This document shows, piece by piece, positions 13,590 to 64,000 of a DNA stretch of 64,000 nucleotides; the first letter of the stretch is position 1, and each line of letters begins with the position of its first letter. The stretch lies in assembly GCA_964525495.1 (NCBI GenBank), contig CAZGHS010000001.1:10863-74862 (forward strand), given 5' to 3'. A program made the translations under genes and the position numbers. Under the pieces are notes generated by a model. The model had not been told where the DNA came from. It did no database searches and saw only the letters and a list, made by a program, of their open reading frames with translations. This DNA comes from an uncultured Gammaproteobacteria bacterium (GTDB lineage: Bacteria > Patescibacteriota > Microgenomatia > JALYQM01).

Positions 13590-13612
13590 TTCAACAATGA
13601 TAAAATCCCTGT

Positions 13613-14618: not shown

Positions 14619-14620
14619 CT

Positions 14621-27105: not shown

Positions 27106-27854
27106 TTGCCTATATAGTCTTCTTAGCTTTATGCATACTCTTCGTATACAAAACACGTATACCAATAGTCAAAAAGTATAAATCCGAACTAAACAAATTT
27201 ATTGACGTGCGCAAAAACAAACTTGGCGAACTATATATGACGCTCAACGGATATACACAAGGCATCGAGGTAAAAAAAGGCTTACAAAACACCGCTATAG
27301 ACAAGTCATACTGGTATTTCTGCGCTAACTCAATCACCGAATTTTGTAAAAATATTGAGAAACCTAAAGTTCTCCTCCTTGGACTCGGTGCCGGAACTGT
27401 CCCTCATATAATAAACAACGTGAATCCCAACATCGAAATGACAGTTGTCGAATACGATCCTGTAGTGATTCAAGTCTGCAAAGACTACTTTCGACTCAAT
27501 GATCTCACTAACACACATGTCATAAACGCAGACGCATTTGAGTTTGTTAAACAAATCCCAGATACACTTTACGACGCAGTACTCATAGATCTTTTTATCA
27601 GCGAAGCACCCTACCTCTCACCTCAGAGCCAAAGCTATAACTTTATCGCCGATGTAGACAAGCTCGTCAAGAAAGACGGTTGGTTTGTCTTAAATCGTCC
27701 TGCTAACGACGCATTCGCTAAAGCAGACCAGAAAAAATTCATGGAGCTTGTAAAGAAAATCTTCAAAGAATACAAAGAAAACGAAATTATTGACCCACGC
27801 AATTACTACAACTATATTATCGAGGCCAAATATTTTCAGCCCGGAATAACATAA
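27078..27854 (+). CDS. Membrane-anchored spermidine-synthase-like (PABS fold) methyltransferase-family protein
   Basis: N-terminal TM helix, then LLLGLGAGTVP...VVEYDPVVI...DAVLIDLF, which is the spermidine/spermine synthase pattern. Confidence 0.5.
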   Translation: MRLLDPPIIVAYIVFLALCILFVYKTRIPIVKKYKSELNKFIDVRKNKLGELYMTLNGYTQGIEVKKGLQNTAIDKSYWYFCANSITEFCKNIEKPKVLLLGLGAGTVPHIINNVNPNIEMTVVEYDPVVIQVCKDYFRLNDLTNTHVINADAFEFVKQIPDTLYDAVLIDLFISEAPYLSPQSQSYNFIADVDKLVKKDGWFVLNRPANDAFAKADQKKFMELVKKIFKEYKENEIIDPRNYYNYIIEAKYFQPGIT

Positions 27855-49275: not shown

Positions 49276-50364
49276 CTATTTAAGTATATCAATACTACTT
49301 TGCTTCATCGAGTCTAAGATTTTTGTAGATTCGACTCCCTGTGCCAAACGCACTTGTCCATACTTTTCAATAATAATTGGAACATAAGCTACGTCGACAA
49401 GCTTTTTGTTATTAAAAACATACTTCCCTATTACACCTTCTTTTGTTTCCCGTGACCACTCCTGGTCAAATATAAAATTGCCATGCGCATACGCAATAAA
49501 CCCTTGCTTATATTGTTCAACACTTTGAACCCAATGGGGGTGATTTCCCATAACAAAATCAGCGCCATTATCAACAAAAAAATGCCCAAGATCAATCGGA
49601 TCATCCGGTGCTATCCCTGCAGCTCGCTGCGGAAAATAAGTATACTCTTTCCCCCAATGAACTGAGACAACGACAACATCAACCATTTTCTTCAGCGCGT
49701 TTAGTTTCTCAGCAACAAGAGGCTTATTCACTTGTGGTCCAACGGCATTTATAGCAAAAATACCCAAGCGCATATCGTTAACTGTCGTAATCAGCGGTTC
49801 GTCAAATGTAACACTCTCAATATTCGCATCCAATAAATGAGAAATCGTTTCTTTCTTCCCCTGTAACCCATGATTCAAAATATGGTTGTTCTCTAAAGTA
49901 GCAATTGATATACCAGCGTCACTCATAGCCTGTGCAAACAATGGCTGCCCACAAAACACCATTCCTTCAGTATGATGAGGGCAACTAGCTATTAACGGAG
50001 CTTCTAAATTAGTAATAGTAATATCACCTGAGGAGAAGAGTCCGGGAATATGCTCGAAGGGAAAGTTTACACCAAGTCGTCGAATTTTATTATCCGTTAC
50101 GCGCGCAGGAATAATATCCCCGGTTGCCATAATTACGCTTGAGTGAGGGTCATCTAGCACTTCGGAATCTGAAAAAATCGACTCAATAGTTAGTGGTTCA
50201 AAAGACACAGCTAACGGTGTCGCGACTGCTGCATCAACTTTCTCCACAACAAGCGGCTCTCCAGCATTATAGAATGGAGTGGGCGAAAGTGCTCGAAATA
50301 AAGCAACTCCGCCAATTAAAGTGAAGGCAAGTCCACTAAAAAAAATAAGAATTTTTTTTATCAC
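49276..50364 (-). CDS. CapA/PGA_cap family metallophosphoesterase-like protein
   Basis: N-terminal anchor, then GDIIPARV, NLEAPL, LENNHILNHG, and MGNHPHWVQ blocks typical of CapA. Confidence 0.6.
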   Translation of the reverse strand: MIKKILIFFSGLAFTLIGGVALFRALSPTPFYNAGEPLVVEKVDAAVATPLAVSFEPLTIESIFSDSEVLDDPHSSVIMATGDIIPARVTDNKIRRLGVNFPFEHIPGLFSSGDITITNLEAPLIASCPHHTEGMVFCGQPLFAQAMSDAGISIATLENNHILNHGLQGKKETISHLLDANIESVTFDEPLITTVNDMRLGIFAINAVGPQVNKPLVAEKLNALKKMVDVVVVSVHWGKEYTYFPQRAAGIAPDDPIDLGHFFVDNGADFVMGNHPHWVQSVEQYKQGFIAYAHGNFIFDQEWSRETKEGVIGKYVFNNKKLVDVAYVPIIIEKYGQVRLAQGVESTKILDSMKQSSIDILK

Positions 50365-50367: not shown

Positions 50368-50838
50368 TTATTTTTGAATAATAACGGGCGCTATGAATAA
50401 ATCTTTAGTAACTTCAACAAAACTTGGATTAATAGGAATTAAGTCAGCATCTTGTAACGTACTCTCAGCATTCGACTCTAAATATGCAACCTCAGCATCA
50501 GAGTAATTGGAAGGAGAAGCAACTCGAATTTGATACTTGCCGGCAGGTACACTTTCAATAACTGCCGTACCAATATCGTTGACCAAAGCACTTCGAACAA
50601 AATCGTCTTCAAAATTTGCGAGTTCGATTCGTAGATTCCGCTCACCACTTCCTAAAATTCCATATTTCTCTGGAAAATATGGAAGAGCTTTAGCTACTTT
50701 TATCTCTACCCTATATGCAGATTTAAATTGAGCTTCTTGAAAAAGTGCCGCAGAAAGATTTCGCATGCCAAGATATATTTCCGGCAAATACCACACAAAA
50801 GCTATCGCTAAAATAAATGGAAAAACTCTCCTCAACAT
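50368..50838 (-). CDS. Hypothetical secreted protein
   Basis: N-terminal TM/signal. No motif. Confidence 0.35.
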   Translation of the reverse strand: MLRRVFPFILAIAFVWYLPEIYLGMRNLSAALFQEAQFKSAYRVEIKVAKALPYFPEKYGILGSGERNLRIELANFEDDFVRSALVNDIGTAVIESVPAGKYQIRVASPSNYSDAEVAYLESNAESTLQDADLIPINPSFVEVTKDLFIAPVIIQK

Positions 50839-50852: not shown

Positions 50853-51950
50853 CTACCGATTAGCAACAGCTTCGTCAACTATGGATTTAATCCGTAAGTT
50901 AAATTTGGAGCGAGAAAAGTCTGATGCACGTAACCGACATGCCTCAGGATTAAATTTCATCGTACTAAAACGCTGTAAAGCCCCTACTACAGCATCAACT
51001 GTCTGCTGTTCAAAGAAAATACCCGTTTGTCCATCCACTACAGATTCACAAACACCACCCTTGGCATAAGCAATAACTGGTTTTCCCCACGCCATCACTT
51101 CAAGAGGCGCTAACCCAAAATCTTCAAAACCTGGAAAAATAAGGCCTTTAGACTGAGCAATCAGAAGATTTCTCTTCGTATCATCAACGTACCCAACAAA
51201 CGTAATAGTTTCCCCTGCAATACTTTCCAAATATGACCGTTCGCTACCTTCACCCACAATTACTAACTTTACTTTCAATTCATTACAAGCACGAACAGCT
51301 AAATCTACTCGTTTAGATCGTACAAGTCGAGATAAACATATAAAATAATCACTACTGCTCGAATACACCTTGGCAAACTCTTTCTGTTCGGGGACATCAA
51401 CAAACGAATAAATTACAGTTGCTTTTCGCTTATAATAACTCGCCATGCGATCTGCAGTAGTATGTGAATTAGTAAGTAATCGATCAATACGCTGTACTGC
51501 AATATATTCATGGTTCCGCAAAAAAGATTTTTGGAACATACTCACTAATGAACTCTTTATAGATCTCTTCTGCTCATCTAGAAATCCATAGAGTGTTTGC
51601 GCAGGAGTATGCATATAGCTGATATGAACAACCTGAGGAGGACAAATCACAAACTTGGAGAAAATAACGTCCGAGGTGATTACAACATCGTACGATGACA
51701 AATCGAGCCGTTCCATCACCGACACCAGGTACGGCGCATAAATTTGAGGGTATACATCAATTTTTGGCAAAGATGATGCGACACTGGTTATCCGTAACCC
51801 TTTCCAATGCGCAGGAAATTTCGTGTGGTCATACGTCAAAGTATAAATATCCACTTGGTTATCAAAACATAACGCCAATGCTTCCAAAAAACGTTCTGCA
51901 CCACCATATTGAGTCAAAAAATCATGAACGAGCGCTATCTTCATAAACAA
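50853..51950 (-). CDS. GT4-family (GT-B) glycosyltransferase
   Basis: E-x7-E region FGLAPLEVMAWGKPVIA and Rossmann-like halves. Confidence 0.7.
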   Translation of the reverse strand: MFMKIALVHDFLTQYGGAERFLEALALCFDNQVDIYTLTYDHTKFPAHWKGLRITSVASSLPKIDVYPQIYAPYLVSVMERLDLSSYDVVITSDVIFSKFVICPPQVVHISYMHTPAQTLYGFLDEQKRSIKSSLVSMFQKSFLRNHEYIAVQRIDRLLTNSHTTADRMASYYKRKATVIYSFVDVPEQKEFAKVYSSSSDYFICLSRLVRSKRVDLAVRACNELKVKLVIVGEGSERSYLESIAGETITFVGYVDDTKRNLLIAQSKGLIFPGFEDFGLAPLEVMAWGKPVIAYAKGGVCESVVDGQTGIFFEQQTVDAVVGALQRFSTMKFNPEACRLRASDFSRSKFNLRIKSIVDEAVANR

Positions 51951-52755
51951 TCTCTTTAATCGCAGTAATATGAATACCTGCGCCAGGCAAAAACCAAAAT
52001 AATCGTGATTCCCAGAACCAAATCCACGATATACTATTTTTTATCCAACGTAAAACGAAAACTCCACTGCGTGAACCCTCCGCATCCAAAGATCCTTCCA
52101 AAGAGTTTTCAATTTTTTTCCCAGATAAACTGAGCAATAGGTAGTAAAAAAGGTCACCAATCTGATTAAGCAAGTGACAACTCCATCGTACTTCAATTAT
52201 CCGCAGTCCAGCATCCTGACACATAATTTCAACTGCATTACGCGTTAGTTTTTGTATATGCCCGGCTGTCTTTTCTTTTAAATTAACCCCCACAGCATTT
52301 AACAATCCATGCAGACTAAATATCTCCCCTTCACAAGGCACATATGCATGAAATAGTCCACCATTATCCAACACGCGAACAGATTCTTTAATACATGTAG
52401 CCGGATCCACAACATGCTCCAATACATCGAAAAAACACACAACAGAAAAAACAGAAGAATTATACGGCAGAGATTCTGCCGGTCCTTCGACTAAATGCAA
52501 TTGAGGAAAATGTTCTGAACCATATCGAATAGCAGCTCGCCCAATGTCAACTCCATACAGTTCAAGTTCGGGAGAATATCTCTGTATTCCAAGCAGATTT
52601 CCACCTGCACCGCAACCAATTTCCAACAGCTTTCCTATACGATTCTTAAGATGAGGAATAAAATAAAAAAACCGCAATCCTGCTAAACAGAAGGGAGATA
52701 TCTCAGGGATAACGGTACCCCACACTTTAGTTTCATAGTCAAATTGATAACTCAC
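51922..52755 (-). CDS. Class I SAM-dependent methyltransferase
   Basis: LLEIGCGAGGNL motif I. Confidence 0.6.
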   Translation of the reverse strand: MSYQFDYETKVWGTVIPEISPFCLAGLRFFYFIPHLKNRIGKLLEIGCGAGGNLLGIQRYSPELELYGVDIGRAAIRYGSEHFPQLHLVEGPAESLPYNSSVFSVVCFFDVLEHVVDPATCIKESVRVLDNGGLFHAYVPCEGEIFSLHGLLNAVGVNLKEKTAGHIQKLTRNAVEIMCQDAGLRIIEVRWSCHLLNQIGDLFYYLLLSLSGKKIENSLEGSLDAEGSRSGVFVLRWIKNSISWIWFWESRLFWFLPGAGIHITAIKEIVYEDSARS

Positions 52756-53285
52756 AATTCGTAGAACTCCAAACTCAGTTCTTTTAATTTTTCAACGTCG
52801 TCGTATTTATGGTCATTACCTGGAATCTCGTGAAGTCGGTAATCAATAACGTTCTTTGAAATAAGAAGTTCGTCTAAATCTTTAGCAGACATTGCCGGAT
52901 CTGACTCCTGCTGAATAAAAAGCGTCGGAACGTGATAATTAGTTAACCAATTATCAATATCATAACCCCGTTCCTTCCCCCACAGTACTGGAGTACCAAC
53001 AAAAATGCACACTTCTGGATCCAACACACCTTCAAAAATTCCATACAGAGTAAGTAAAACTCCAGCAGATTTTGCAAATATAACGTACTTATCAAACTCT
53101 TGAACAGTAGCGGTAAGCTTCAACAATTCAGCGTCCAAATCAATCTCAGACTCCTCATCTCCGTTCCACCAATGATCATAGTAAAGAACTGCTGTATGAG
53201 GAAAAATACCTTGAAAGGCTCCATCTACACGGTCCACCCACACTTTATCTGACTTACTGTTTCCTGGCAACAAAATTAGGTTCAT
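52752..53285 (-). CDS. Hypothetical protein
   Basis: 177 aa with no motif. Translationally coupled to the upstream methyltransferase. Confidence 0.35.
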   Translation of the reverse strand: MNLILLPGNSKSDKVWVDRVDGAFQGIFPHTAVLYYDHWWNGDEESEIDLDAELLKLTATVQEFDKYVIFAKSAGVLLTLYGIFEGVLDPEVCIFVGTPVLWGKERGYDIDNWLTNYHVPTLFIQQESDPAMSAKDLDELLISKNVIDYRLHEIPGNDHKYDDVEKLKELSLEFYEL

Positions 53286-53347
53286 ATCTCACCATTATAC
53301 CCTATCAACACCTTCCTATTTAGTACCCAACTCGATATACTCTACCC

Positions 53348-54997
53348 ATGACACAACATGCTGATCAAGGCGGTTATTATGAAGACGATGATGTTAAAGA
53401 AGAAAAGCATCTCCAGCACGACGTCGAACCAAAATCCCAGCGTGTAACAACAATCATCACTCTCGTAGTTCTTATAGTAATTGCCCTCACTGCACGATTA
53501 ATATACCTCTTTCTCGTAGCCAATCCTGACAATCCAGGAGCTGGTTGGTTTGGAGACTCCTATCACCATTGGCAAATAGGATATCTCACAAAAGAAATTG
53601 GACTAAGCCAAGGATTTCTGCGCGTCTGGGATTTAAAAGGTATGGACCTCTTTTGGGGAGCACTCCATCCACTTACACTTGCATTCGCCTTTAGCATTAC
53701 CGGTAACGATTCAATGGCATTAGCACGCGCTATCACTTGTATCGCCGGAGCTATATCAGTCGGACTAATTTACCTTATTGGAAGAAAATATTGGAATAAT
53801 ACTGTTGCAATCATGGGAGCGCTCTTTGCAGCGCTGTGTTCAATTATCATTTTCAATGATGCAACTGGCATGGTTGAACCTCTTGGTATCCCCTTCCTAC
53901 TTGCCGGAGTATATTTTTGGCCTCGTAAGTCACTACTATCTGGCTTGTGCTTCGGCATTGCACTCACGACTCGCTCAGAATATTGGATGTACAGCATCGG
54001 TTTAATTTTCGTCTATACGATATGGGATCGCATGGCGCACATGGATAAAAAAGTACTTTTGTGGCTTGGATTGTTCATAATTCTCGTTCCATATATGAAA
54101 TATCTACTGGATTATACCGGCAATCCTGTATACCCTTTTTATCAAAACTTTTTCAAAAACATAGCAGGCGAATGGCAATATAAAAAAGTACTAGAACCCG
54201 CAGATCTTCAAGGCCAGCTTACGTTTAGAATCATATTAGCTATCACCACACTAGCCACTGTCATAACACTCTGGAAGAGGCCGCGCGGATGGCAATTCCA
54301 CCTGCTCGGTCAAGGAAACTGGCTCTTCTTAGGATTAACATTTGGTGTATCAAACTATATTAAGAGCTGGGCAGATTATGTCTGGGTAGTCAGATTTATG
54401 CTCTTCCCCTATACCTATCTCGGAGTCGTAATAGCAATTGCACTTTTCTATACGTTCCGGGAAAGGCTCTCAGGAGGACTTAAATCTACATATACAGTCG
54501 TAGCTGCCGCCACTTTCATACTTTTCATAGGAACTACTCATCTCGCATGGCAAGAGATAAATAAATATTATGAACCAACCAACAAAACATGGAGTTATGT
54601 ACAAGAAGTAGCCACAAAGATGAGTACGGGGTACAAAGGAGGAAAAATCCTTTTACCAGAAGGTAATCCAGACTTAACGTATGCCTTAGTTACATTCCAT
54701 GGAGTGGAAGGCAAAGACATGCTAAGCCAAATGTACGATCCGATCGGATATGCCAGCCAAAATGGCCTAAACGCTGTCGAAAACTGGAACAATGTCGACC
54801 CATTTAGTAAAGAAGGCTTAACCTTTAAGGAAGAAGTTCGTGACTATCTCAAAACCAATAAAGTGCAATACATTATCACTTATGGGAGCTTCCCTCGATA
54901 TAATGTATTAGTGGAAACCGAACCAACGTGGTTCAGCGTTGCAGTTCCACTCTCAGAAAACTTTATTGCTCTCCATGTGAATCAAGACAATCTTTAG
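53348..54997 (+). CDS. Polytopic membrane protein, GT-C-fold glycosyltransferase-like (ArnT/PMT/Emb-like architecture)
   Basis: Eleven or more TM helices in the first 400 aa, then a roughly 150-aa soluble C-terminal domain. Acidic residues sit in the first extracytoplasmic loop. Fold assignment is tentative. Confidence 0.4.
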   Translation: MTQHADQGGYYEDDDVKEEKHLQHDVEPKSQRVTTIITLVVLIVIALTARLIYLFLVANPDNPGAGWFGDSYHHWQIGYLTKEIGLSQGFLRVWDLKGMDLFWGALHPLTLAFAFSITGNDSMALARAITCIAGAISVGLIYLIGRKYWNNTVAIMGALFAALCSIIIFNDATGMVEPLGIPFLLAGVYFWPRKSLLSGLCFGIALTTRSEYWMYSIGLIFVYTIWDRMAHMDKKVLLWLGLFIILVPYMKYLLDYTGNPVYPFYQNFFKNIAGEWQYKKVLEPADLQGQLTFRIILAITTLATVITLWKRPRGWQFHLLGQGNWLFLGLTFGVSNYIKSWADYVWVVRFMLFPYTYLGVVIAIALFYTFRERLSGGLKSTYTVVAAATFILFIGTTHLAWQEINKYYEPTNKTWSYVQEVATKMSTGYKGGKILLPEGNPDLTYALVTFHGVEGKDMLSQMYDPIGYASQNGLNAVENWNNVDPFSKEGLTFKEEVRDYLKTNKVQYIITYGSFPRYNVLVETEPTWFSVAVPLSENFIALHVNQDNL

Positions 54998-56504
54998 AAA
55001 CATAATAAATATAGACAGTATCTTGATACGCTAAACTTTTTTCAAATACTTTTCGTAATTCAAAACAACTTGGATTATCCAACCGATAGTTCAATAACAT
55101 AACGCCTTCGCCGCCAAGGTGCGCTAAAGAGCGCCTAACCACCTCGCTTTGATCAATTGCCTGCCGATCCGTGTTCATAACCACATAAGTACCTACAGTG
55201 TCACTACGAGGATAATATAAATGCCTATTTAAATATATTGCGATAGGAGTCATCGCATAGTCAAAATCCACACTGATAGGCAGTCTGTCGAGTTGCGAAG
55301 TCTTTAAATAATCTGAGACATCCTTACTCGTCATGAATGGTTCATTAAAATCTGCATAGTACGCATAGATTCCACAGACAAAATGTACCGAAAGCAACAC
55401 AGTAAAAAACGGCGGGAATATTCGATTTACTGCCTTATACATTTTTTCAGATCGAACAGACAAACCATCTTCTCTCTCGGGATAAAAACTTCTTAGCCAC
55501 ACGATACATATAAAAAGAATAAAAAAGAAGCCATAATGACGGACCGCTCCATAGTAAGTGGTATAAAATAACAAAAACAACACACTCGCCGCACCCAAAT
55601 ATAACCCTAGTAACACTCGCCTCTTAACAAGCAAAAGACACGAATACAAAATAAACAAGCCAACTAATCCAATCGCAATACCAATCGAAACATACTGCGT
55701 AGTCGAAAGTGATTCAGTGTTCTGAACCGGCATAACAATATTTGTATTCCAAAAATGAAGTCCGAAGTGAGGAATTGGTATCATCCCACGCCAAACCATC
55801 AAACTAGATAGAGCCACCCTCTGTAAATCAAAGTGGGTATACGAATCCAAGGTATAACTACGATCAACGGGCGGCAATAATTTAAGCAGCGCAGTACCAC
55901 TCAAGGATACAAAACAGAATAAAGAGATCACTAATATTCGCCAATCAACTTTTTTGCGATATATCCATATATATTCACCAAACAAAAAACAACCCAAAAC
56001 AAGCGAAAAAAGAAATCCAACTGGCGAAGTCTGCCCTAACAATCCCACAATCAAAGCAGTGAGATATAATCGTCGAAACCGTTGCGCATACCAAGCACAA
56101 TATATAAAGAGAAGCAAAACAGTCAAACCATAGTTCCGGCTTATAACGGCATATTCAAAAAAAACAAAGTAACCAAAAATAAATAAAATCTTATCGAGCA
56201 ATCGAAAAGGTGCATATCGACAAAAAACTACAATTCCAATCAAAGCAATGGCTATATGAGCCAGTTGCATATAGTAAAAATTGTCAGTAATCCGAGTTAC
56301 TCCAAACAGGATCGAATACCACATCATAGGGTGCGCTTCATATGTTAGATTCTGATAAAGGTTGACCAACGAGCTGCTATCTCGCGCAAAAAGCCAGCCA
56401 TGCGCTTCTTCATACCACAATTCATGTCGAGGCAATAGCAAAACAAGAAGAAAAAACCAAATACCTACAATGATATAAACAAAATATTTTCTAAAATTAC
56501 CCAT
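54963..56504 (-). CDS. Polytopic membrane protein, possibly a second GT-C-like glycosyltransferase or polymerase
   Basis: 513 aa. About 12 TM helices, then a C-terminal soluble domain. Confidence 0.35.
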   Translation of the reverse strand: MGNFRKYFVYIIVGIWFFLLVLLLPRHELWYEEAHGWLFARDSSSLVNLYQNLTYEAHPMMWYSILFGVTRITDNFYYMQLAHIAIALIGIVVFCRYAPFRLLDKILFIFGYFVFFEYAVISRNYGLTVLLLFIYCAWYAQRFRRLYLTALIVGLLGQTSPVGFLFSLVLGCFLFGEYIWIYRKKVDWRILVISLFCFVSLSGTALLKLLPPVDRSYTLDSYTHFDLQRVALSSLMVWRGMIPIPHFGLHFWNTNIVMPVQNTESLSTTQYVSIGIAIGLVGLFILYSCLLLVKRRVLLGLYLGAASVLFLLFYTTYYGAVRHYGFFFILFICIVWLRSFYPEREDGLSVRSEKMYKAVNRIFPPFFTVLLSVHFVCGIYAYYADFNEPFMTSKDVSDYLKTSQLDRLPISVDFDYAMTPIAIYLNRHLYYPRSDTVGTYVVMNTDRQAIDQSEVVRRSLAHLGGEGVMLLNYRLDNPSCFELRKVFEKSLAYQDTVYIYYVSKDCLDSHGEQ

Positions 56505-56531
56505 ATAAACTATGCTAGAATACTATTCTAG

Positions 56532-58220
56532 ATGAAAACGCTTGGTATCAATCCTTTTAGTCATGACGCAAGTGTTGCACTCTGTGTCGATGGAAAAATT
56601 ATAGCAGCTGTTACACAAGAGCGTTTTGACAGGATAAAACACAGCACCCAAATTCCTCGAGAGGCACTAGAATTCTGCCTCAAGCAAGGAGATATCTCGG
56701 ACATAAACCAACTCGAAAGCATCGGATTCACGTTTAACTTTCTACATTGGAAAATCATTTGGCACCTACTCGACACCCTCTCCCCGATTCTGCCATCACA
56801 AATAGTAACTCCTTTTTTAAAAAATAAATCTCATCTCTGGAATATTATTAAGATTTGGCATCTCTTAAGAAAAGAGCAAAACTATAAAGGTAAGGTAATA
56901 TTCCTAGAGCATCATCTATGTCATGCAGCATCGGTATACTTTGCATCTCCTTATTCTGACTCAGTAATTATTACTGCCGACGGCAAAGGAGAAATCGCCA
57001 CCACCTGCATTTATGAAGCCGATCAATCAAATATCAAGAAAAAACTTCAGATTAATCATCCAGATTCTATCGGCATCCTGTACTCTCTTGTTACCGAATT
57101 TCTAGGATTTAAACAACTATGTGACGAAGGAAAAATCATGGGGCTCGCACCATACGGAAACAATTCATTAGTAGATTCAATGAAAAAACTTATTCGACTT
57201 GAGGATGGGTTCTCCATTAATATGAACTATTTTCAGCAGGATATTTTCAGCCGATTATCTTTCAGTGAAAAATTTTACGATATATTCGGAAATAAACGTA
57301 AAAAGGATGAAGAACTCACCCAGCACCACAAAAACATAGCCTTCGCAATACAGGCACTAACAGAAAAAATTATTCTCCATATTGTTGCGGTCTCGAAGAT
57401 GCGAACTGAGTCCTCGAACCTCTCGATGGCAGGAGGAGTTATTCTTAACAGCGTAACAAACGGTAAAATTCTTGAATCCAATTTCTATAAAAATGTATAT
57501 TTCTATCCTGCTGCAGGTGACGACGGCACTGCAGTCGGTGCTGCATTTCTAACCTACTATCAAAACAATACCTCTAAACAAAACATTATTGAGAACAGCT
57601 CACCTTATCTTGGACCAGAAATATCAGAGTCAGACATTCTAGCAGAATTAGCAAAACGAGGAATCAAATACACAAAATCAGAAAACATTGCGCATGAAAC
57701 CGCGAAACTTCTCGCACAAAACAAATTTGTCGGGTGGATACAGGGAAAGGCAGAGTTTGGACCGCGCGCGTTAGGCAATCGCTCGATCCTCGCCGATCCG
57801 CGCAATCCCCATAACAAAGATCGACTTAACGCGACTGTCAAATTTCGTGAAAGCTTCCGACCGTTCGCTCCATCAATCTTGGAAGAAGAGGCAACAAAAC
57901 ATTTCAAATCAGATGGAATTAACTCACCGTATATGATCGTTACCTACGATGTAGTCAAGGACAAACAAGACAAAATTCCTGCGGTTACACATATCGACAA
58001 GACGGCCAGAATACAAACGGTTAACAAACAACAAAACGAAAGATACTACAACTTAATAAGCGAATTTAATAAATTAACAGGAGTTCCTGTTTTACTCAAC
58101 ACAAGTTTCAATCGTATGAATGAACCAATTGTAAATTCAGCTGAACAAGCAGTTACCTGCTTTCTAGAATCTGGACTTGAAGTCCTCGCAATGGGAGATT
58201 ATCTAATACTTAAAGATTAG
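56532..58220 (+). CDS. NodU/CmcH-family carbamoyltransferase
   Basis: N-terminus LGINPFSHDASVALCVDGKIIAAVTQERFDRIKHS and the C-terminal YrdC/HypF-like half. 562 aa. Confidence 0.75.
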   Translation: MKTLGINPFSHDASVALCVDGKIIAAVTQERFDRIKHSTQIPREALEFCLKQGDISDINQLESIGFTFNFLHWKIIWHLLDTLSPILPSQIVTPFLKNKSHLWNIIKIWHLLRKEQNYKGKVIFLEHHLCHAASVYFASPYSDSVIITADGKGEIATTCIYEADQSNIKKKLQINHPDSIGILYSLVTEFLGFKQLCDEGKIMGLAPYGNNSLVDSMKKLIRLEDGFSINMNYFQQDIFSRLSFSEKFYDIFGNKRKKDEELTQHHKNIAFAIQALTEKIILHIVAVSKMRTESSNLSMAGGVILNSVTNGKILESNFYKNVYFYPAAGDDGTAVGAAFLTYYQNNTSKQNIIENSSPYLGPEISESDILAELAKRGIKYTKSENIAHETAKLLAQNKFVGWIQGKAEFGPRALGNRSILADPRNPHNKDRLNATVKFRESFRPFAPSILEEEATKHFKSDGINSPYMIVTYDVVKDKQDKIPAVTHIDKTARIQTVNKQQNERYYNLISEFNKLTGVPVLLNTSFNRMNEPIVNSAEQAVTCFLESGLEVLAMGDYLILKD

Positions 58221-59681
58221 TTACAAACTAACCTGCTTAATTTTATACTCAAAAATCGATTTATCTTCCTTATTATCAATAAAATTCTGTGCTAACTGAA
58301 AAGCCATTTCGATACTATTATCCGAGTTGTTATACCGAAATATTCCAGTTCTTCCCAGCAAATAGACATCATCACTTTCCAAGTATTGCACGACCTGTTG
58401 CAACCGCTCTTTGTAATCCAAATCATATACAGGATACGCATACCGTATTCGCTTCACAAAAGTCCCTAATACCTTGTCGAGAGCAAACAATTTAATCCGA
58501 TCCCCAGCCTCTACGCACTCCTGAGATAATTGTTCATCGCTTTTATTCCATGTCTCATCACCAAAATAACAGGTAATATCTAAACAAACACAGGTTTTGC
58601 CAGCAGGTGCCATCTTTTTTGACCAATTTGTAAATTCCACAGATCGATTAAATGGAATATCTTTATCGGGAAAATACATCCAATGATCATTGGAAACACG
58701 ATCCTGATCCAAAAACACATAGACAAAAATAATATCCATATACTTGGTCTGTTTTAATAAACTCTCTATCTTTTCGCTCTTTTTCTCTTGCAAGTCATAC
58801 AACAACTTGAGAGGTACAGTAGAAACAAGAGAATCATACGGAACAACCTGTTCCACGTTATCTTTCACATACACAACTTCATGTTTTTCTTTTCGGATCT
58901 CTTTTACCAAAGCTCTCAGGGTTACTTCTCCTCCATGCACTTGTAAATCGCGAGCAAATGCATCCGGCACTTCTTGAATACCGTCATCCGGATAATAAAA
59001 CTCTCCCCCATCCGGTGCGAGAGAATCATCTTCAAGATCATATCGAAAAAAATTAAATGAAATAAGTTTTTGTACTGCGCGCTTAATTAATTTCTGTAAA
59101 TTCTCACCGCTAAAGCGCGCATCTGCCCAATCTGCAGAGATTTCACCCGGATCCATTCCCCAAATTTTTGAGGTGTATCGGTAGCACATAATTTCATACA
59201 ATTTTGGACCGTAGTAATACAAAAACCAGTCCTTATATGATCGTACATTCCGAGCCTTACCTCGCAGTTTAAATCTATTCCACAAATAATCTACGCCACA
59301 CAAAAAAGCTTCATGCAACGGCATCGCACCAAACAAATTATCTAACTCGAAAGGATATTTAAGATACTTATTATATAAATAAATACGACTCTTCTTGATG
59401 TGCGTCTTCATCTCCAAGCCAGGAAGTGAATGTATAACATCGAGCAACTCTTTGTTTTTTGTATGAAACCTATGCGCTGAGAAGTCCAATAAGTACCCAT
59501 CGTGCTCCATCGTGCGACTCAATCCACCTACCACATTCTCCTTTTCCAATACCAATACAGATTTACCGCTCTTTGCAACTTTCCACGCAAACGAAAGCCC
59601 TGCAACACCCGCGCCTAGTACGATAAAGTCATACTTCTTTAGTTCCATTGTGTTAAATACTCCTTCAAACACTCTTGCCAA
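58221..59681 (-). CDS. FAD-dependent UDP-galactopyranose-mutase-like flavoenzyme
   Basis: Dinucleotide-binding KKYDFIVLGAGVAGLS...VLVLEKENVVGG and the AHRFHTKN block, comparable to the Glf AH-x-FHT motif. 486 aa, longer than bacterial Glf. Confidence 0.5.
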   Translation of the reverse strand: MARVFEGVFNTMELKKYDFIVLGAGVAGLSFAWKVAKSGKSVLVLEKENVVGGLSRTMEHDGYLLDFSAHRFHTKNKELLDVIHSLPGLEMKTHIKKSRIYLYNKYLKYPFELDNLFGAMPLHEAFLCGVDYLWNRFKLRGKARNVRSYKDWFLYYYGPKLYEIMCYRYTSKIWGMDPGEISADWADARFSGENLQKLIKRAVQKLISFNFFRYDLEDDSLAPDGGEFYYPDDGIQEVPDAFARDLQVHGGEVTLRALVKEIRKEKHEVVYVKDNVEQVVPYDSLVSTVPLKLLYDLQEKKSEKIESLLKQTKYMDIIFVYVFLDQDRVSNDHWMYFPDKDIPFNRSVEFTNWSKKMAPAGKTCVCLDITCYFGDETWNKSDEQLSQECVEAGDRIKLFALDKVLGTFVKRIRYAYPVYDLDYKERLQQVVQYLESDDVYLLGRTGIFRYNNSDNSIEMAFQLAQNFIDNKEDKSIFEYKIKQVSL

Positions 59682-60514
59682 GAACGCATAGTATACAGAT
59701 TTTGCTCCATCAAGCGCTTATTAACAAGTTTTTCAGAAACTGGCCGAGGCGCATGATACTCTTTCGCAACAAAGTCGGAAGAAACTTTGTGCAATACAAT
59801 ATCGTCACGCTGCAATTCTTTCAAGATATACTCGGCAACATCATAGCGACTCGCACACCCCTCGCAAACACTGTGATACAAACCGTACGATTCTTTTTCT
59901 ACGACATTAAAGATATTTTGAACTAAGTCATAAGTGTATGTCGGAGTTCCAAATTTATCGTCAACTACAAATAATTCTTTCTCTCCATTTTTAATCTTCT
60001 TAAGCAACTTATTAACAAATTTCTTATCCTTTTTCTCCCCGCCACCCATCATCCAGCCAGCTCGAAATATATAATGTTTAGTGTATTGTGCAACCAATTG
60101 CTCAGCAGCATATTTGGTCTTGCCATATGCATTAATTGGATTAGGCGTATCTTCTTCCATATATGCATCCTGATCCCCATCAAAAACTCCCGCAGTAGAG
60201 ATATGAACCATAGGAACGTCAAGCGCTTTGCAGGCATTCAAAACATTCTGCGTTCCAAGCATATTAGTTACATGCGCTTCTTTAGGATGCAACTCACAAT
60301 ACTCTACATCAGTCAAAGCGGCCAAATGCACCACGATGTCTGGCTCAAATGTATGTATTTGACGCGTTGTAAGATCCGAATCCCGCACATCACCATACTC
60401 TAAAAACGTATCATTTACATCAATATCAGTAGCAAAAAAATTATCAGAATTTTTGAGGCGATGATAAAATGCTTCCCCAAGCATTCCACCACAACCAGTT
60501 ATGTAAACACGCAT
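59639..60514 (-). CDS. SDR-family NAD(P)-dependent sugar reductase/epimerase, RmlD (dTDP-4-dehydrorhamnose reductase)-like
   Basis: MRVYITGCGGMLG Rossmann motif. 291 aa. Y-x3-K catalytic pair. Confidence 0.6.
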   Translation of the reverse strand: MRVYITGCGGMLGEAFYHRLKNSDNFFATDIDVNDTFLEYGDVRDSDLTTRQIHTFEPDIVVHLAALTDVEYCELHPKEAHVTNMLGTQNVLNACKALDVPMVHISTAGVFDGDQDAYMEEDTPNPINAYGKTKYAAEQLVAQYTKHYIFRAGWMMGGGEKKDKKFVNKLLKKIKNGEKELFVVDDKFGTPTYTYDLVQNIFNVVEKESYGLYHSVCEGCASRYDVAEYILKELQRDDIVLHKVSSDFVAKEYHAPRPVSEKLVNKRLMEQNLYTMRSWQECLKEYLTQWN

Positions 60515-60571
60515 ACGAGGTAGTGTACCGACACGGAAACCTATTTACAAGCCGTATCAAACTCATTTACT

Positions 60572-61435
60572 ATGCTCTGTATGTCTGAATTTTCTGCTCA
60601 CACCCAATGGCAAGCTGAACTCTACGACGAACATCCACCTCTCAACCCTTTTGAGAAACTTCATCGTGAAATCGGTTTCGCTCTTGTTTGTCGCCCTAAA
60701 GATCTAGCTACAAAAAACTACCTCGAACAATTCAAGGTCAACGATCAAACCAAAATCCTTGACATGGGATGCGCCTCAGGATTTCTGCTCCAGCGAATCA
60801 GCAAAACATTTGGCTCCCAAGGAACAGGAATAGATGTGTCAAAAGTACTTATCGACAAAGCAAAGCAAGAAGATCCCAATAACCAATACTTTTTGGCCGA
60901 CGCATCCAAACTACCATTTCCAGACAACACCTTCGATCTTGTAACCAGCTTTGATAACCTCGAACATATTCAAGAATACAAAAAAGTAATTAAAGAAATG
61001 GTACGAGTATTAAAACCAGGCGGAACGATACTACTCAACACTATTAACAAACACAACCGTTTTACGTTCGACTGGCTCCTGGAAAAACTTGGCAGCGACT
61101 ATCATATGCGACGCGCTGGCCATGTTAAGGAGCTTTTTTTCGACCCTCAGGATATAAAAGTACTATTTGAAGAAGCAGGTTTAGAAAACACTAAAATCCG
61201 ACTGTTTGATGCTACATTTATTTTGATTATGGATTGTGCCTTATACATATTCCTCATGGCAATAGAGAAACTAGCAAATGTTACAAATAGTTATCATAGA
61301 TTAGGGCGAATATCCCTTACTATTACTAATATCGCAAGTAAACTCTCATTACCAGTACTCGAAAAATGTGATACAGTTATTATTAAACACGGGTTTTCCA
61401 ACGCGTTTTTCCTAACTGGAGTAAAAAGCAAATAA
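60572..61435 (+). CDS. Class I SAM-dependent methyltransferase
   Basis: ILDMGCASGFLL and LKPGGTILL. Confidence 0.6.
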   Translation: MLCMSEFSAHTQWQAELYDEHPPLNPFEKLHREIGFALVCRPKDLATKNYLEQFKVNDQTKILDMGCASGFLLQRISKTFGSQGTGIDVSKVLIDKAKQEDPNNQYFLADASKLPFPDNTFDLVTSFDNLEHIQEYKKVIKEMVRVLKPGGTILLNTINKHNRFTFDWLLEKLGSDYHMRRAGHVKELFFDPQDIKVLFEEAGLENTKIRLFDATFILIMDCALYIFLMAIEKLANVTNSYHRLGRISLTITNIASKLSLPVLEKCDTVIIKHGFSNAFFLTGVKSK

Positions 61436-61447
61436 ACTAAAAACAAT

Positions 61448-62356
61448 ATGTTACCTGCCCTCAAAAGACTTTATTTAGAAAAAGGCGCGCTCGGCGTGCT
61501 CGAATGGATTTACGACAAAAAACGGTTTTTTCCCGTAAAGCTAGTTCTCAAGACAATCTTTAAAGTCTTTCCCTATGAACATATTCTGCGAACAACTGCA
61601 AAATATAACCAATCCATTCCAAGCAAGGGATTCGTAAAAAGTACTCAAACCTATATAAAGAACTTTAATATAGATATAAAGCAAATCAACTCATTCGATA
61701 TCAATGGACCATGCCTCATATTTGGAAACCATCCTACAGGACTAGATCCATTTATTATCGCCTCGTGCCTCAAGCGTGATGATGTATATATTGTCGCCGA
61801 CAACTATCAGCAAAGAAAGGGAACGTTTATAGGCCAACACGTAATTCCTATTTTCTACTCACGCACTCAGAAAAACCTAGAGAATCGAGGATTCCTGAAC
61901 TCTATAGGATTTTACGCCATGCGGCAATTGACAGGCTATGAAGAATACGAAACAGTAAAAAAACAAAACCAGGTAACGATTCAAACCGCAGCCAAGCTTT
62001 TAATGGACGGACATGTAGTTATAATTTTTCCGGATGGCGGAAGTAACAATCCGGAGTTATGGTATAACGGAATTGGAGAAATTATTAAGCGAACGGTAGA
62101 TAGAGAAAATAAAATCAAGTTGTTTGCGGCCAACATTCAAGGCATTTCATCATTCAAACTATGGAGGCATTTTCTATTCAACCGCAAAAAATATCTACAA
62201 AGCCACCCTGCTCACGTAGTAATTTCACCACAACTCACTTTAGCAAGTTTATGTATCGAATCTCACCAAGAATCACGAGAAATTACAGAACGATTAAGAT
62301 CTGAATATAAAGCAAATAAACTGTGGCACCCGAACTACGCCTACCAACAAGCTTAA
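61448..62356 (+). CDS. PlsC-like acyltransferase
   Basis: H-x4-D motif in FGNHPTGLDP. Confidence 0.55.
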   Translation: MLPALKRLYLEKGALGVLEWIYDKKRFFPVKLVLKTIFKVFPYEHILRTTAKYNQSIPSKGFVKSTQTYIKNFNIDIKQINSFDINGPCLIFGNHPTGLDPFIIASCLKRDDVYIVADNYQQRKGTFIGQHVIPIFYSRTQKNLENRGFLNSIGFYAMRQLTGYEEYETVKKQNQVTIQTAAKLLMDGHVVIIFPDGGSNNPELWYNGIGEIIKRTVDRENKIKLFAANIQGISSFKLWRHFLFNRKKYLQSHPAHVVISPQLTLASLCIESHQESREITERLRSEYKANKLWHPNYAYQQA

Positions 62357-62357
62357 T

Positions 62358-63650
62358 ATGAAAATTGCGCTATTTCACCTTTCCTTTCTCTATTCTGGAG
62401 GAGGAGAAAAACTAGTTCTAAAAGAGATCGAACTTCTTACACAAGCCGGTCATACAGTCGATTGTTACGCGCCACTAATCGATCCAGAAGAATGCTTTCC
62501 AGAAATAATCAAAAAATACAACATTAAAGAAATAATAAAAGGCACCACCAAAATTTTTCTCGGAAAACCAGAACTTGGGGTAGCCTTCACTTGCTTACTA
62601 TTCCCGTTTATTGCATTTAAATTTAGAAAATACGACACCATTATTGGAGCCAATCAGCCAGGACCGCTTTTTGGTTGGATACTCAAAATACTTCTTAGAA
62701 AGCCATATATTGCATATATTGCTCAACCAACCCGGCTTATATATCCTCGCCCTATTGATAGAGAAGTAGGATTGAGATTTAAATCCAAAATGAATTTCTT
62801 TCCGCACGTAGCAAACATACTACGCCCGTTTATCTACTGGCTCGACCTCAAGAGTATTACCAGCGCACACACTCTTTTTACAAACGGCGAGTACATGAAA
62901 GAAATAATTGAACAGATTTATGGCAAAACAGCTACCATCTGTCATCCAGGAGCAAAATGGGACTACAAAATGAGTTTTCTAAAACAGAACAAACAAAACT
63001 CAATAACAATAAATAATAATACATACCCCACTCCGTATATCTGCCTGACAAATAGACATTTTCCTCAAAAAAAGTTCGAATATGCAATAGAGGCAATCCG
63101 TCATTTAGATCATAAAATACCGGTATTAATTGCGGGTAAAGAAACCTACTATACTCAGTCTCTCAAAAAACTAGTGCAGAGTTACCATCTCGAAGACCGT
63201 ATTCATTTTCTAGGATATGTGAGTGAAACAGATATCGAGATTCTATATAAAAACAGCTCACTCTATCTCTACACTGCGATCGAGGAAGATTTCGGCATGG
63301 GCATAGTTGAGGCAATGGGTTACGGCATACCAGTCATAGCAATAAATCGAGCAGGACCATCTAAAATAATCACACACAACCATAACGGATTTCTAGTCGA
63401 ACCAGATGATCACAAAGCAATGGCCTCGACCATAAAAAAATGTTTAAACAATAGAGAACTAGTTCTTAAAATTGGAAAAAACGCAGTCCATACCATACGA
63501 AAGAATTATTCCTGGGGAAATCACGCAAATATTTTGGGAAATACACTAAAATCAATCGCAAATACGAATCACAAAACTGATTCAAAAACTTCTTTATACC
63601 GCGCCGTCATAAATTCTCGCTTAACGTTCGAAGGTAAAACCATTTCATGA
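62358..63650 (+). CDS. GT4-family glycosyltransferase
   Basis: EEDFGMGIVEAMGYGIPVIA E-x7-E block. Confidence 0.7.
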   Translation: MKIALFHLSFLYSGGGEKLVLKEIELLTQAGHTVDCYAPLIDPEECFPEIIKKYNIKEIIKGTTKIFLGKPELGVAFTCLLFPFIAFKFRKYDTIIGANQPGPLFGWILKILLRKPYIAYIAQPTRLIYPRPIDREVGLRFKSKMNFFPHVANILRPFIYWLDLKSITSAHTLFTNGEYMKEIIEQIYGKTATICHPGAKWDYKMSFLKQNKQNSITINNNTYPTPYICLTNRHFPQKKFEYAIEAIRHLDHKIPVLIAGKETYYTQSLKKLVQSYHLEDRIHFLGYVSETDIEILYKNSSLYLYTAIEEDFGMGIVEAMGYGIPVIAINRAGPSKIITHNHNGFLVEPDDHKAMASTIKKCLNNRELVLKIGKNAVHTIRKNYSWGNHANILGNTLKSIANTNHKTDSKTSLYRAVINSRLTFEGKTIS

Positions 63651-64000
63651 TGATCTATAGGACGAGTAATCAACGTTCGCAGCAATTCAGCAGCTGATTC
63701 TACCCCATCCGTTGGTTTAAAAATTACACATTCGGTTAGATTGTTCAATAGCTCATCTGCCCCTGCCCCGTCAGCAAGCATTACTTTCTGTGTACCACTC
63801 GCAATAGCTTCGAAAGGAACCATAGTACATCCTTCGCCGTAAGAAGAAGGGTGTATCAATATCTGAGACCGCGCATACACAGATACCAATTCATGCTTCT
63901 CTACAAAACCCAAAAAAACCACACGATCACTGCAACGATCAATGCATAAATTACTCACATCGCCACTCCCCGCAAAAACCAAATAGAGTTGCGGATTGGT
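63569..64000 (-). CDS. GT4-family glycosyltransferase, partial (N-terminus beyond the window end); 3' end overlaps the convergent gene by about 80 nt
   Basis: LVFAGSGD and EGCTMVPFEAIASG blocks. The reading frame stays open to position 64000. Confidence 0.55.
   Translation of the reverse strand, partial: TNPQLYLVFAGSGDVSNLCIDRCSDRVVFLGFVEKHELVSVYARSQILIHPSSYGEGCTMVPFEAIASGTQKVMLADGAGADELLNNLTECVIFKPTDGVESAAELLRTLITRPIDHHEMVLPSNVKREFMTARYKEVFESVL

Follow-up and report, generated by a model that had tools for sequence, protein, structure and literature searches.

Which sugar does a bacterium activate when the gene of an RmlD-type reductase overlaps that of a flavoenzyme resembling UDP-galactopyranose mutase (UGM)? 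The question is raised by a cluster of glycan genes at the right end of the window, by which we mean the whole 64-kb stretch analyzed here (contig CAZGHS010000001.1 of an uncultivated bacterium), and in whose coordinates the positions of the cluster are given. An earlier note, written from the sequence alone, had read this cluster as a route to a heavily modified polymer containing galactofuranose and/or arabinofuranose. We mapped the open reading frames (ORFs), scanned them with Pfam and NCBIfam models, and compared the two genes with their orthologs in 41 genome loci (L009 is identical with L001). Every enzyme class that the note had placed in the cluster is present according to these scans, and the gene cluster is a genuine conserved surface-glycan locus. 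As a whole it is a locus of an ordinary kind; its unusual part is the pair of reductase and flavoenzyme, which crosses the boundary between bacteria and archaea, together with the linkage of this pair to membrane proteins of the glycosyltransferase C (GT-C) fold. The family and fold assignments, the conservation of catalytic residues, the gene overlap and the conservation of both block and pair are direct observations. For the sugar we give about an even chance to a reading that differs from that of the note: the region would be a locus for the assembly and decoration of a cell-envelope glycan, with monoderm-type wall genes, and its core pair would make a nucleoside-diphosphate (NDP)-linked (6-deoxy)hexofuranose.

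A UGM-like flavoenzyme and its RmlD-type partner

The flavoenzyme most likely starts with the ATG at 59648, 11 nt downstream of an AAGGAG sequence, which gives a protein of 475 amino acids (aa). Above their cutoffs, only generic Pfam families match it (Amino_oxidase with 81.2 bits, NAD_binding_8 with 8.2e-16), and the best NCBIfam model, NF005548 (PRK07208, "hypothetical protein"), is reached with 314.7 bits against a cutoff of 389. In sequence searches of the PDB, the top 27 matches are all UGMs. With the single sequence, the enzymes of Aspergillus fumigatus (AfUGM, 2.6e-23) and Trypanosoma cruzi (TcUGM, 9.1e-19) align over nearly the full length, and with a profile of 20 homologs they reach 7e-35 and 8e-33 (query positions 6–455). 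Bacterial UGMs in the PDB align to the first ~170 residues only. The best match of the profile outside the UGMs has an E value of 5.7e-10 and covers the N-terminal dinucleotide-binding part only; amine oxidases, protoporphyrinogen oxidases and CrtI stand at 1e-10 or worse, again mostly with coverage of this N-terminal part. The flavoenzyme is thus UGM-like, as the note had proposed, and does not group with amine oxidases or phytoene desaturases.

The residues point in the same direction. The Rossmann motif GxGxxG (G12, G14 and G17) is conserved in 20 close and 140 distant homologs. In TcUGM, His62 is located at the flavin, and Arg423 belongs to the active site; different reaction steps are stabilized mainly by Arg176 and Arg327, Arg327 in addition forms a hydrogen bond to the UDP phosphate, and Tyr395 and Tyr429 hold this phosphate (PMC4192007). 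The counterparts of His62, Arg176, Arg327, Tyr395, Arg423 and Tyr429 are H59, R178, R335, Y405, R433 and Y439 (475-aa numbering), a catalytic set kept in 128–141 of 141 aligned sequences. The counterparts of the UGM residues His63, Arg182, Trp315, Tyr317, Arg327, Tyr419, Arg447 and Tyr453, which include W323 and Y325, are invariant in the 20 close homologs, and each of these eight is conserved in 125–141 (89–100%) of the 141 sequences formed by the window protein and 140 representatives with 27–47% identity. An exhaustive search yielded 1122 clusters (50% identity) that match the flavoenzyme at E<=1e-30. It hence belongs to a large unannotated UGM-like family that forms a separate subfamily and is not an equivalog of the known UGMs. 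Annotation pipelines call members of this family "protoporphyrinogen oxidase" or "FAD-dependent oxidoreductase", the former being the label that JGI gives to many of the homologs.

The partner is a short-chain dehydrogenase/reductase (SDR) of the extended type. Over residues 1–289 it matches RmlD_sub_bind (PF04321) with 220.7 bits; the equivalog model TIGR01214 is missed marginally (215.2 versus a cutoff of 224.05), and the score for GalE is 55.7 bits compared with 215 for RmlD. Eight of its nine best PDB relatives were deposited as dTDP-4-dehydrorhamnose reductases, with 5U9C as best match (1.8e-36), and the remaining one as a dTDP-glucose oxidoreductase. Both the GxxGxxG motif (G7, G10, G13) and Y130xxxK134 are conserved in 30 orthologs, and the protein is predicted to be an intact RmlD-type reductase. 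From the earlier description of the SDR as RmlD/DprE2-like, the first half hence holds, whereas the DprE2 type, a classical adh_short protein, is not matched. The orthologs also share an invariant segment, RxGWMxGGG..DKK (residues ~151–169), which is found in 5U9C, annotated as dTDP-4-dehydrorhamnose reductase, as well; it may mark a distinct RmlD subfamily. Between the SDR stop and the flavoenzyme ATG there is an overlap of 10 nt, located in CAATGGAACTAA. That the gene overlapping the flavoenzyme gene encodes an RmlD-type reductase points to a 6-deoxyhexose.

Homologs of the flavoenzyme with 50–56% identity are found in Patescibacteria, Woesearchaeota, Nanoarchaeota, Spirochaetes, Chitinophagaceae, Polyangiaceae, Marinimicrobia, Gemmatimonadota, Thermodesulfobacteriota and Peregrinibacteria. 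The pair recurs in about 34 of the 41 loci. In 33 of the 41, an SDR ortholog with ~50% identity directly adjoins the flavoenzyme gene, usually upstream and co-directional, and in most loci the two frames overlap; in some loci the adjoining SDR is of the 4,6-dehydratase type and not a reductase. The other genes of the window are conserved nowhere beyond L008 and L009 among these loci. The conserved unit hence is the two-gene pair, and the rest of the cluster is lineage-specific.

Pairs of this kind keep recurrent company. Counting polytopic proteins of at least 350 aa with at least six predicted transmembrane (TM) segments, we found that 29 of the 41 loci have one no more than two genes away from the pair (odds ratio 5.4, p 2e-9). 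Where Pfam recognizes them, these neighbors are PMT_2, PMT, STT3, DUF2142 or EpsG/DUF6798 proteins, and several are without a Pfam model. GtrA-family proteins occur in at least seven loci and glycosyltransferases of family 2 (GT2) in at least twelve, one of them as a fusion with a GtrA/DPMS membrane domain, and class-I methyltransferases, too, are repeatedly encoded near the pair.

Two membrane proteins with a GT-C fold

Next to the pair, the window encodes two large polytopic proteins of 549 and 513 aa, which the note had called GT-C-like. Searches of the PDB with either sequence gave no match, so that only structure models were informative. PMT_2 is the only Pfam family matched by the 549-aa protein, and the 513-aa protein has neither a Pfam nor an NCBIfam match. 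We modeled each with AlphaFold2 (AF2) from about 70 homologs (72 for the 549-aa and 68 for the 513-aa protein). Both models are confident: they have a predicted local distance difference test (pLDDT) of 92.7 and 94.4 and a predicted template-modeling score (pTM) of 0.90 and 0.94, respectively, and both show a long series of helices followed by a mixed alpha/beta C-terminal domain.

In Foldseek searches of the PDB, the top matches of both models are exclusively GT-C enzymes, with a probability of ~1.0. The 18 best for the 513-aa model comprise ArnT (E 7.8e-05, TM score ~0.5), PglB, AftA, AftD, EmbA/B/C, AftB, DPY19 and oligosaccharyltransferase (OST). The 549-aa model finds ArnT (5e-07), ALG9, ALG12, STT3/AglB, AftA, Pmt4 and PglB, with 22 matches at E<=1e-3. 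A GT-C enzyme should carry acidic residues in its first loop, and these are conserved: just after TM1 (helix 2–23) of the 513-aa protein, H27 and E33 do not vary in 68 homologs, W30 and D32 (D/E) hardly do, and after TM1 (helix 29–57) of the 549-aa protein D70, H73, W75 and D95 are invariant in 72 homologs. From the positive-inside rule we infer that these acidic residues are extracytoplasmic. Both proteins are thus predicted from their models to be GT-C folds, in agreement with the note.

A furanosyl role, which the note had attached to this fold, finds no such backing. Aft and Emb proteins are not the best structural matches; ArnT, OST and ALG enzymes fit as well or better, and without a particular affinity to Emb or Aft a furanosyl specificity is not indicated. 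ArnT, the undecaprenyl-phosphate-L-Ara4N:lipid A transferase (5F15/5EZM), is the best structural match of both models with a TM score of ~0.5; it differs from them in sequence (~12–13% identity) and in its setting, as no arn pathway genes are present. The family of the 513-aa protein extends to cyanobacteria, Bacteroidota and others. At one such site in Chroococcidiopsis sp. TS-821 (MVDI01000001, 1055–8584), the 513-aa homolog (7001–8584) is accompanied by four GT2 genes, a Wzx gene and a PRK07208-type flavoenzyme gene (1055–2491), whose product is 29% identical to the flavoenzyme of the window and retains the UGM residues; an RmlD-like gene is missing within 7 kb.

The sugar that the pair would make

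In the reading that we prefer, the SDR would reduce an NDP-4-keto(-6-deoxy)hexose to the pyranose in an NAD(P)H-dependent step, and the flavoenzyme would turn this pyranose into the furanose by ring contraction, with N5 of the reduced flavin acting as in UGM, so that an NDP-(6-deoxy)hexofuranose would leave the pair. Three cytoplasmic glycosyltransferases of family 4 (GT4) might build the glycan on a lipid carrier, and the two GT-C proteins could transfer sugar or glycan from polyprenyl-phosphate-linked donors at the outer face of the membrane. Decoration would fall to two methyltransferases, the O-carbamoyltransferase and the PlsC-type acyltransferase. What we infer here comprises the substrate, the furanose nature of the product, the sequence of steps and the acceptor.

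A precedent comes from two known surface glycans. In Campylobacter jejuni HS:41, the adjacent HS41.18 and HS41.17 make CDP-D-fucofuranose (CDP-D-Fucf) as well as CDP-6-deoxy-L-altrofuranose (CDP-6-deoxy-L-Altf) (PMC12369002), and for Escherichia coli O52 a dTDP-D-Fucf pathway is described (Wang 2008, as cited in PMC7685785). Both place a C4-reductase next to an FADH2-dependent mutase, and thereby set an example for a pair that makes a 6-deoxyhexofuranose. Likewise, in the window the gene of an NAD(P)H-dependent SDR 4-ketoreductase adjoins that of a UGM-superfamily flavoenzyme within a surface-glycan locus, and the predicted logic of reducing a 4-keto-6-deoxy sugar and then contracting its ring would be the same. 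In contrast to these systems, the mutase of the window is long and eukaryote-like (475 aa), the nucleotidyltransferase, dehydratase and epimerase genes of the known pairs were not found in the window, and the window-type pair is linked to GT-C proteins and spread over bacterial and archaeal phyla. The eukaryote-type UGMs (A. fumigatus, 3UTE; T. cruzi, 4DSG) share with the flavoenzyme full-length homology, the His of the histidine loop, the two catalytic Arg, the two Tyr that hold the phosphate, and Trp and Tyr of the 315–317 region; they differ from it by the curated cutoffs that it fails to reach, by a tentative Asn-to-Asp exchange and by its obligate RmlD-type partner.

Several observations weigh against a hexofuranose pathway. 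Neither a nucleotidyltransferase nor a 4,6-dehydratase or 3,5-epimerase that could feed the reductase was found in the 64-kb window, where RmlA, RmlB and RmlC are all missing. In the other genomes, only ~9 of 41 loci encode a nucleotidyltransferase, a 4,6-dehydratase-like SDR or both at a distance of at most 10 kb from the pair. Moreover, GT-C proteins draw on lipid-linked donors, so that a mutase acting on a soluble NDP-sugar does not suffice to account for their tight linkage to the pair; it would take a GtrB-type GT2 and a GtrA flippase in between. These are present in other loci, whereas tblastn with GtrA from L014 and the GT2 from L011 finds neither in the window. The flavoenzyme stays far under the UGM equivalog cutoff (TIGR00031, 74.2 versus 303.75) and below that of the GLF family of Pfam (PF03275, 18.1 versus 26.3). 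The sugar-contacting Asn of UGMs (AfUGM Asn207, TcUGM Asn201) is apparently replaced by an invariant Asp213 in a PDGG motif, an assignment that is tentative because the alignment is gapped there; such a change would be consistent with a different substrate. Finally, our literature search found no characterization of the flavoenzyme family or of the pair. A MATE flippase was not found in the cluster either.

In favor of the preferred reading, sugar-nucleotide genes, of the nucleotidyltransferase, 4,6-dehydratase-like SDR and NDP-hexose C-methyltransferase kinds, do accompany the pair in some loci (L013, L019, L025, L026, L029, L031, L035, L039 and L041). The order in L013 (Woesearchaeota) is SDR, flavoenzyme, nucleotidyltransferase and a dehydratase fragment; in L019 (Nanoarchaeota), the genes of a PMT_2 protein, the flavoenzyme and a dehydratase-like SDR stand in a row, and those of a nucleotidyltransferase and GtrA are found further upstream. 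Three loci have an NDP-hexose C-methyltransferase near the pair. In L011, a series rmlA-rmlC-rmlB upstream of the pair had been guessed from gene sizes; according to NCBIfam models, these genes are a UDP-glucose dehydrogenase fragment and a GT4.

Closest to the earlier note is the view that the flavoenzyme is a true UGM producing UDP-galactofuranose (UDP-Galf). The SDR would then be a helper, e.g., a 4-epimerase to UDP-Gal, or unrelated, and the GT-C proteins would be galactofuranosyl or arabinofuranosyl transferases, with arabinofuranose provided through a UbiA-family gene at 28 kb. This agrees with the nearest solved relatives being UGMs, with the conservation of all UGM catalytic residues and with the presence of AftA, AftB, AftD and Emb among the fold matches. 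The sequence UDP-Glc, UDP-Gal, UDP-Galf would moreover manage without further genes for sugar nucleotides, in keeping with the lack of such genes in the window, and the UbiA protein, taken by the note for DPPR-synthase-like, is genuine in that it exceeds the cutoff for this enzyme (NF008978, 213.9 versus 207). However, the UGM model scores given above speak against an ordinary UGM, the obligate partner is of the RmlD family and not of the GalE type, and ArnT, OST and ALG enzymes equal or surpass Aft and Emb as matches of the GT-C models. The UbiA gene lies 22 kb from the cluster in a different operon, and tblastn and jackhmmer found no UbiA-family protein up to 10 kb from the pair in the 41 loci, so that the link drawn by the note between this gene and the cluster is not supported. 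DprE1 and DprE2 were not found in the window either (tblastn with a DprE1/DprE2-like pair from L031). We thus consider a true UGM rather unlikely. Galactofuranose is not supported, since the flavoenzyme stays under the UGM cutoffs and its partner points to a 6-deoxyhexose, and neither is arabinofuranose, with DprE1/DprE2 not found and UbiA unlinked.

Alternatively, flavoenzyme and SDR might form a two-component epimerase like DprE1/DprE2, in which FAD oxidizes a hydroxyl of a polyprenyl-phosphate sugar and the SDR re-reduces it with inversion, yielding the donor for the neighboring GT-C proteins. In mycobacteria, where a UbiA-family DPPR synthase belongs to the system as well, the gene layout is Rv3789 (GtrA-like), DprE1, DprE2, AftA, and it is mirrored by the order GtrA, SDR, flavoenzyme, GT-C in L004 and L038. 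Loci other than that of the window thus have as neighbors the genes of a small GtrA-type membrane protein, an SDR using NAD(P)H, a flavoenzyme and a GT-C transferase. The tight linkage of the pair to GT-C proteins would find an explanation, the module would be self-contained so that rml genes were unnecessary, and the window does encode a polyprenyl-phosphate-ribose synthase-like enzyme in the DPPR-synthase-like UbiA. SDR- or DprE-type epimerases acting on undecaprenyl-phosphate pentofuranoses beside GT-C enzymes are documented (PMC11127046). Against this stands the type of both proteins: the flavoenzyme has the UGM fold and not the vanillyl-alcohol oxidase (VAO)/FAD_binding_4 fold of DprE1, and the SDR is of the extended RmlD type, in contrast to the classical adh_short DprE2. 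The full set of phosphate-binding and flavin-loop residues of UGMs is kept, for which there is no reason in an alcohol oxidase, the SDR beside the flavoenzyme is of the 4,6-dehydratase type in some loci, and UbiA is never linked to the pair.

A locus of a Paceibacterota genome (L031; JAGVDT010000036, 1066–16259), rich in furanose-related genes, is instructive in this respect. It encodes two UGM-like flavoenzymes (4838–6265 and 14165–15613), the latter preceded by an RmlD-like SDR (13220–14146), and in addition a DprE1-like (9079–10410, FAD_binding_4) and DprE2-like (10407–11141, adh_short) pair, together with three PMT_2/GT87-like GT-C proteins, a GT2–GtrA fusion and a 4,6-dehydratase-like SDR. 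Since the DprE1/DprE2-type pair coexists here with two flavoenzymes, the two kinds of enzyme are not interchangeable, and the UGM-like protein is not a simple stand-in for DprE1. We regard a DprE-like epimerase as quite improbable.

Two further explanations touch only one of the partners. The SDR might not be a sugar enzyme, and instead serve the mutase alone, holding its flavin in the reduced state at the expense of NAD(P)H, as bacterial UGMs need an external reductant. Strict co-inheritance and gene overlap of the pair would suit this role, as would the finding that no enzymes feeding the reductase were detected in the window. It is very improbable nevertheless, because the SDR retains a complete RmlD substrate-binding domain and the YxxxK motif, and the closest relatives of the flavoenzyme would not need such help: eukaryote-type UGMs are reduced directly by NAD(P)H. 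A UGM–NADP+ complex has been noted (PMC7662398). Still harder to believe is that the flavoenzyme is an ordinary oxidoreductase of the amine oxidase, protoporphyrinogen oxidase or carotenoid desaturase type that merely happens to lie among glycan genes. Amino_oxidase is the best Pfam family above its cutoff, and there is the JGI name of many homologs, but in profile and sequence searches UGMs lead amine oxidases, protoporphyrinogen oxidases and CrtI by about 20 orders of magnitude or more, the UGM-specific residues are conserved, and the neighborhoods of the flavoenzyme are invariably glycan-related.

Returning to the (6-deoxy)hexofuranose, the pair can be compared with the three-component systems for pentofuranoses, in which PPPRS, a MATE flippase and GT136 act with auxiliary epimerases (PMC11127046). 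Here as in those and in the GtrA/B/C systems, the predicted substrates of the GT-C proteins are polyprenyl-phosphate sugars on the outer side of the membrane, with auxiliary sugar-modifying enzymes setting the donor, and GT2 genes, one of them GtrA-fused, and GtrA genes accompany the pair in related loci. In contrast, the cluster of the window is without a detected GtrA, GtrB-type GT2 or MATE flippase, the auxiliary enzymes are a reductase and a mutase and not an epimerase, and the sugar would be a hexofuranose instead of a pentofuranose. We may thus speculate, tentatively and with more doubt than confidence, that the overlapping RmlD-like reductase and UGM-like flavoenzyme form, with a variable GT-C protein and often with GtrA and GT2, a horizontally mobile module whose product, a (6-deoxy)hexofuranose linked to polyprenyl phosphate and not described so far, is the donor for glycosylation outside the membrane. 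Under the same tentative reading, this module would be shared by bacteria of the candidate phyla radiation (CPR), DPANN archaea, Spirochaetes, Bacteroidota, Myxococcota and others, and would be the hexofuranose counterpart of the pentofuranose systems.

If the pair indeed makes a new furanose donor, a function would be given to a large unannotated family, and a common surface-glycosylation chemistry would emerge in CPR and DPANN organisms, which are ultrasmall and of whose envelopes hardly anything is known. To our knowledge, furanose sugars are absent from mammals, and furanose-making enzymes are drug and vaccine targets. Taken alone, the window contains a well-supported but ordinary glycan locus.

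The gene cluster and the rest of the window

The genes of the cluster (Table 1) are densely packed, with intergenic distances of -82 to +62 nt. Eleven of their proteins are found together in L008 and L009 with 38–73% protein identity, in nearly unchanged order in L008 and rearranged in L009. This packing and the recurrence of eleven genes in two other genomes show that the block is not a chance juxtaposition. The note had let the cluster start with the GT4 gene at 50853, probably ~1.6 kb too far right. The run of five minus-strand genes from 53285 down to 49276 is held together by overlaps or gaps of at most 14 nt; the 156-aa gene follows GT4 a after 14 nt, and the PGA_cap gene follows after another 3 nt on the same strand. 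The PGA_cap gene is kept beside the cluster in L008 (50% identity) and L050, and the 156-aa protein has an ortholog in L008 (39%). Because both genes are co-directional, tightly spaced and conserved beside the GT4 gene in L008 and L050, a left boundary at 49276 is more likely. The right end is cut by the end of the window.

Table 1. Genes of the cluster and further features of the window
Feature	Position	Strand	Evidence
UbiA, polyprenyl-phosphate phosphoribosyltransferase-like (DPPR-synthase-like)	27836..28783	-	NF008978 213.9 vs cutoff 207
PGA_cap (CapA-like) protein	49276..50364	-	PF09587 E 4.3e-43; probable last gene of minus-strand operon starting at 53285
156-aa protein, hydrophobic N-terminus, family unassigned	50368..50838	-	CarboxypepD_reg 18.8 bits, weak, below cutoff
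GT4 (GT-B) glycosyltransferase a	50853..51950	-	Glycos_transf_1 7e-24; Glyco_transf_4 4.4e-11
S-adenosylmethionine (SAM)-dependent class-I methyltransferase a	51922..52755	-	Methyltransf_11 7.5e-17
177-aa conserved protein	52752..53285	-	no Pfam/NCBIfam/PDB match
GT-C-fold membrane glycosyltransferase 1 (predicted), 549 aa (PMT_2/GT39-like)	53348..54997	+	PMT_2 1.2e-09; AF2 + Foldseek
GT-C-fold membrane glycosyltransferase 2 (predicted), 513 aa, family without Pfam model	54963..56504	-	AF2 + Foldseek
NodU/CmcH/TobZ-type O-carbamoyltransferase	56532..58220	+	Carbam_trans_N 7.4e-62; Carbam_trans_C 4.2e-72
UGM-superfamily flavoenzyme, PRK07208 type, predicted NDP-sugar pyranose/furanose mutase	58221..59648 (ORF to 59681)	-	NF005548 314.7 bits
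D213 codon of the flavoenzyme (tentative)	~59010-59012	-	alignment with UGMs
RmlD-family extended SDR, predicted NAD(P)H-dependent NDP-4-ketohexose reductase	59639..60514	-	RmlD_sub_bind 220.7 bits
SAM-dependent class-I methyltransferase b	60572..61435	+	Methyltransf_11 9.4e-25
PlsC-type acyltransferase	61448..62356	+	PF01553 2.5e-08, 34.3 bits vs cutoff 23
GT4 (GT-B) glycosyltransferase b	62358..63650	+	Glycos_transf_1 5e-37
GT4 glycosyltransferase c, C-terminal 143 aa, cut by window end	63569..64000	-	Glycos_transf_1 1.3e-13; frame open to base 64000

Family matches bear out the decorating enzymes named by the note, a NodU/CmcH carbamoyltransferase, methyltransferases and an acyltransferase, with corrected numbers: two methyltransferases were found instead of three, and three GT4 enzymes instead of four, one of them cut by the window end. 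The carbamoyltransferase has both of its domains (Carbam_trans_N, 210.2 bits; Carbam_trans_C, 241.7 bits), and its PDB relatives are GdmN (5.8e-94), the novobiocin carbamoyltransferase (7e-91) and TobZ (8e-75); it scores below the NodU equivalog (180.9 versus 1000). GT4 a has orthologs in L008 and L009, and identities to the orthologs there amount to 60% for methyltransferase a, 61% for the acyltransferase and 54% for GT4 b; for the GT4 c fragment, L008 contains a match with 32% identity. The order methyltransferase b, acyltransferase, GT4 b is preserved in both. The acyltransferase has no significant relative in the PDB. The 177-aa protein has orthologs with 62–65% identity in L008 and L009 that adjoin a PMT_2 gene there too; an AKSAG motif seen by eye had suggested an alpha/beta-hydrolase, a candidate that we dropped as no Pfam, NCBIfam or PDB match was found.

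The cluster consists of about seven short transcription units on alternating strands. Convergent genes overlap at their 3' ends, by 35 nt for the two GT-C genes (54963–54997) and by 82 nt for GT4 b and GT4 c (63569–63650), and the carbamoyltransferase and flavoenzyme genes abut with zero gap. A scan for promoters and terminators between 49 and 64 kb was uninformative (34 promoter-like sites versus 43.2 in shuffled sequences), and an Rfam scan of the window found two tRNAs and nothing else.

The UbiA protein at 28 kb is the only polyprenyl-phosphate-sugar synthase visible in the window; apart from NF008978 it comes just below the cutoff of NF008977 (229.7 versus 234). Its gene overlaps by 37 nt that of a WecA/MraY-like polyprenyl-phosphate N-acetylhexosamine-1-phosphate transferase (28747–29829), and FemAB-like (26170–27105), MurJ (32080–33735) and LytR-CpsA-Psr (LCP) ligase (34970–36283) genes are nearby. 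The region resembles a second wall-glycopolymer module, possibly with a lipid-linked pentofuranose route. A pathway in which polyprenyl-phosphate-ribofuranose synthases feed GT-C enzymes, aided by epimerases of the SDR or DprE kind, is established (PMC11127046), and by analogy the organism may also add a pentofuranose. As a DPPR phosphatase we had considered an IMPase-like protein in L026 and L029, which sits with an ATP sulfurylase/adenosine 5'-phosphosulfate (APS) kinase gene and looks like a CysQ-type phosphatase of 3'-phosphoadenosine 5'-phosphate (PAP). In L029 (Kaiserbacteria, JACRFH010000010, 5076–7497), the ATP sulfurylase/APS kinase fusion and the CysQ-like phosphatase are encoded just upstream of flavoenzyme and GT-C protein, which hints at a sulfated glycan in this lineage.

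Elsewhere in the window, a gene at 7788–8285 encodes a type IV pilin-like protein with an N-terminal methylation motif. Pilins of Pseudomonas are acceptors of GT-C-mediated furanose glycosylation, and it is conceivable that the pilin-like protein is an acceptor of the glycan. Between 10000 and 19000, the GC content is low (0.35 compared with ~0.41) and most ORFs are without a Pfam match; a serine recombinase gene (14621–16339, plus strand) overlaps with its 3' end a tRNA-Ile gene (16271–16345, minus strand). This part may be an integrated mobile element. The GC skew is strongly negative (-0.12 to -0.28) nearly throughout the window, regardless of the coding strand. Exceptions are found at ~12–16 kb, where it is near zero, and at 44–48 kb, where two Peripla_BP_6 genes flank the gene of a dCache/HAMP/PAS histidine kinase.

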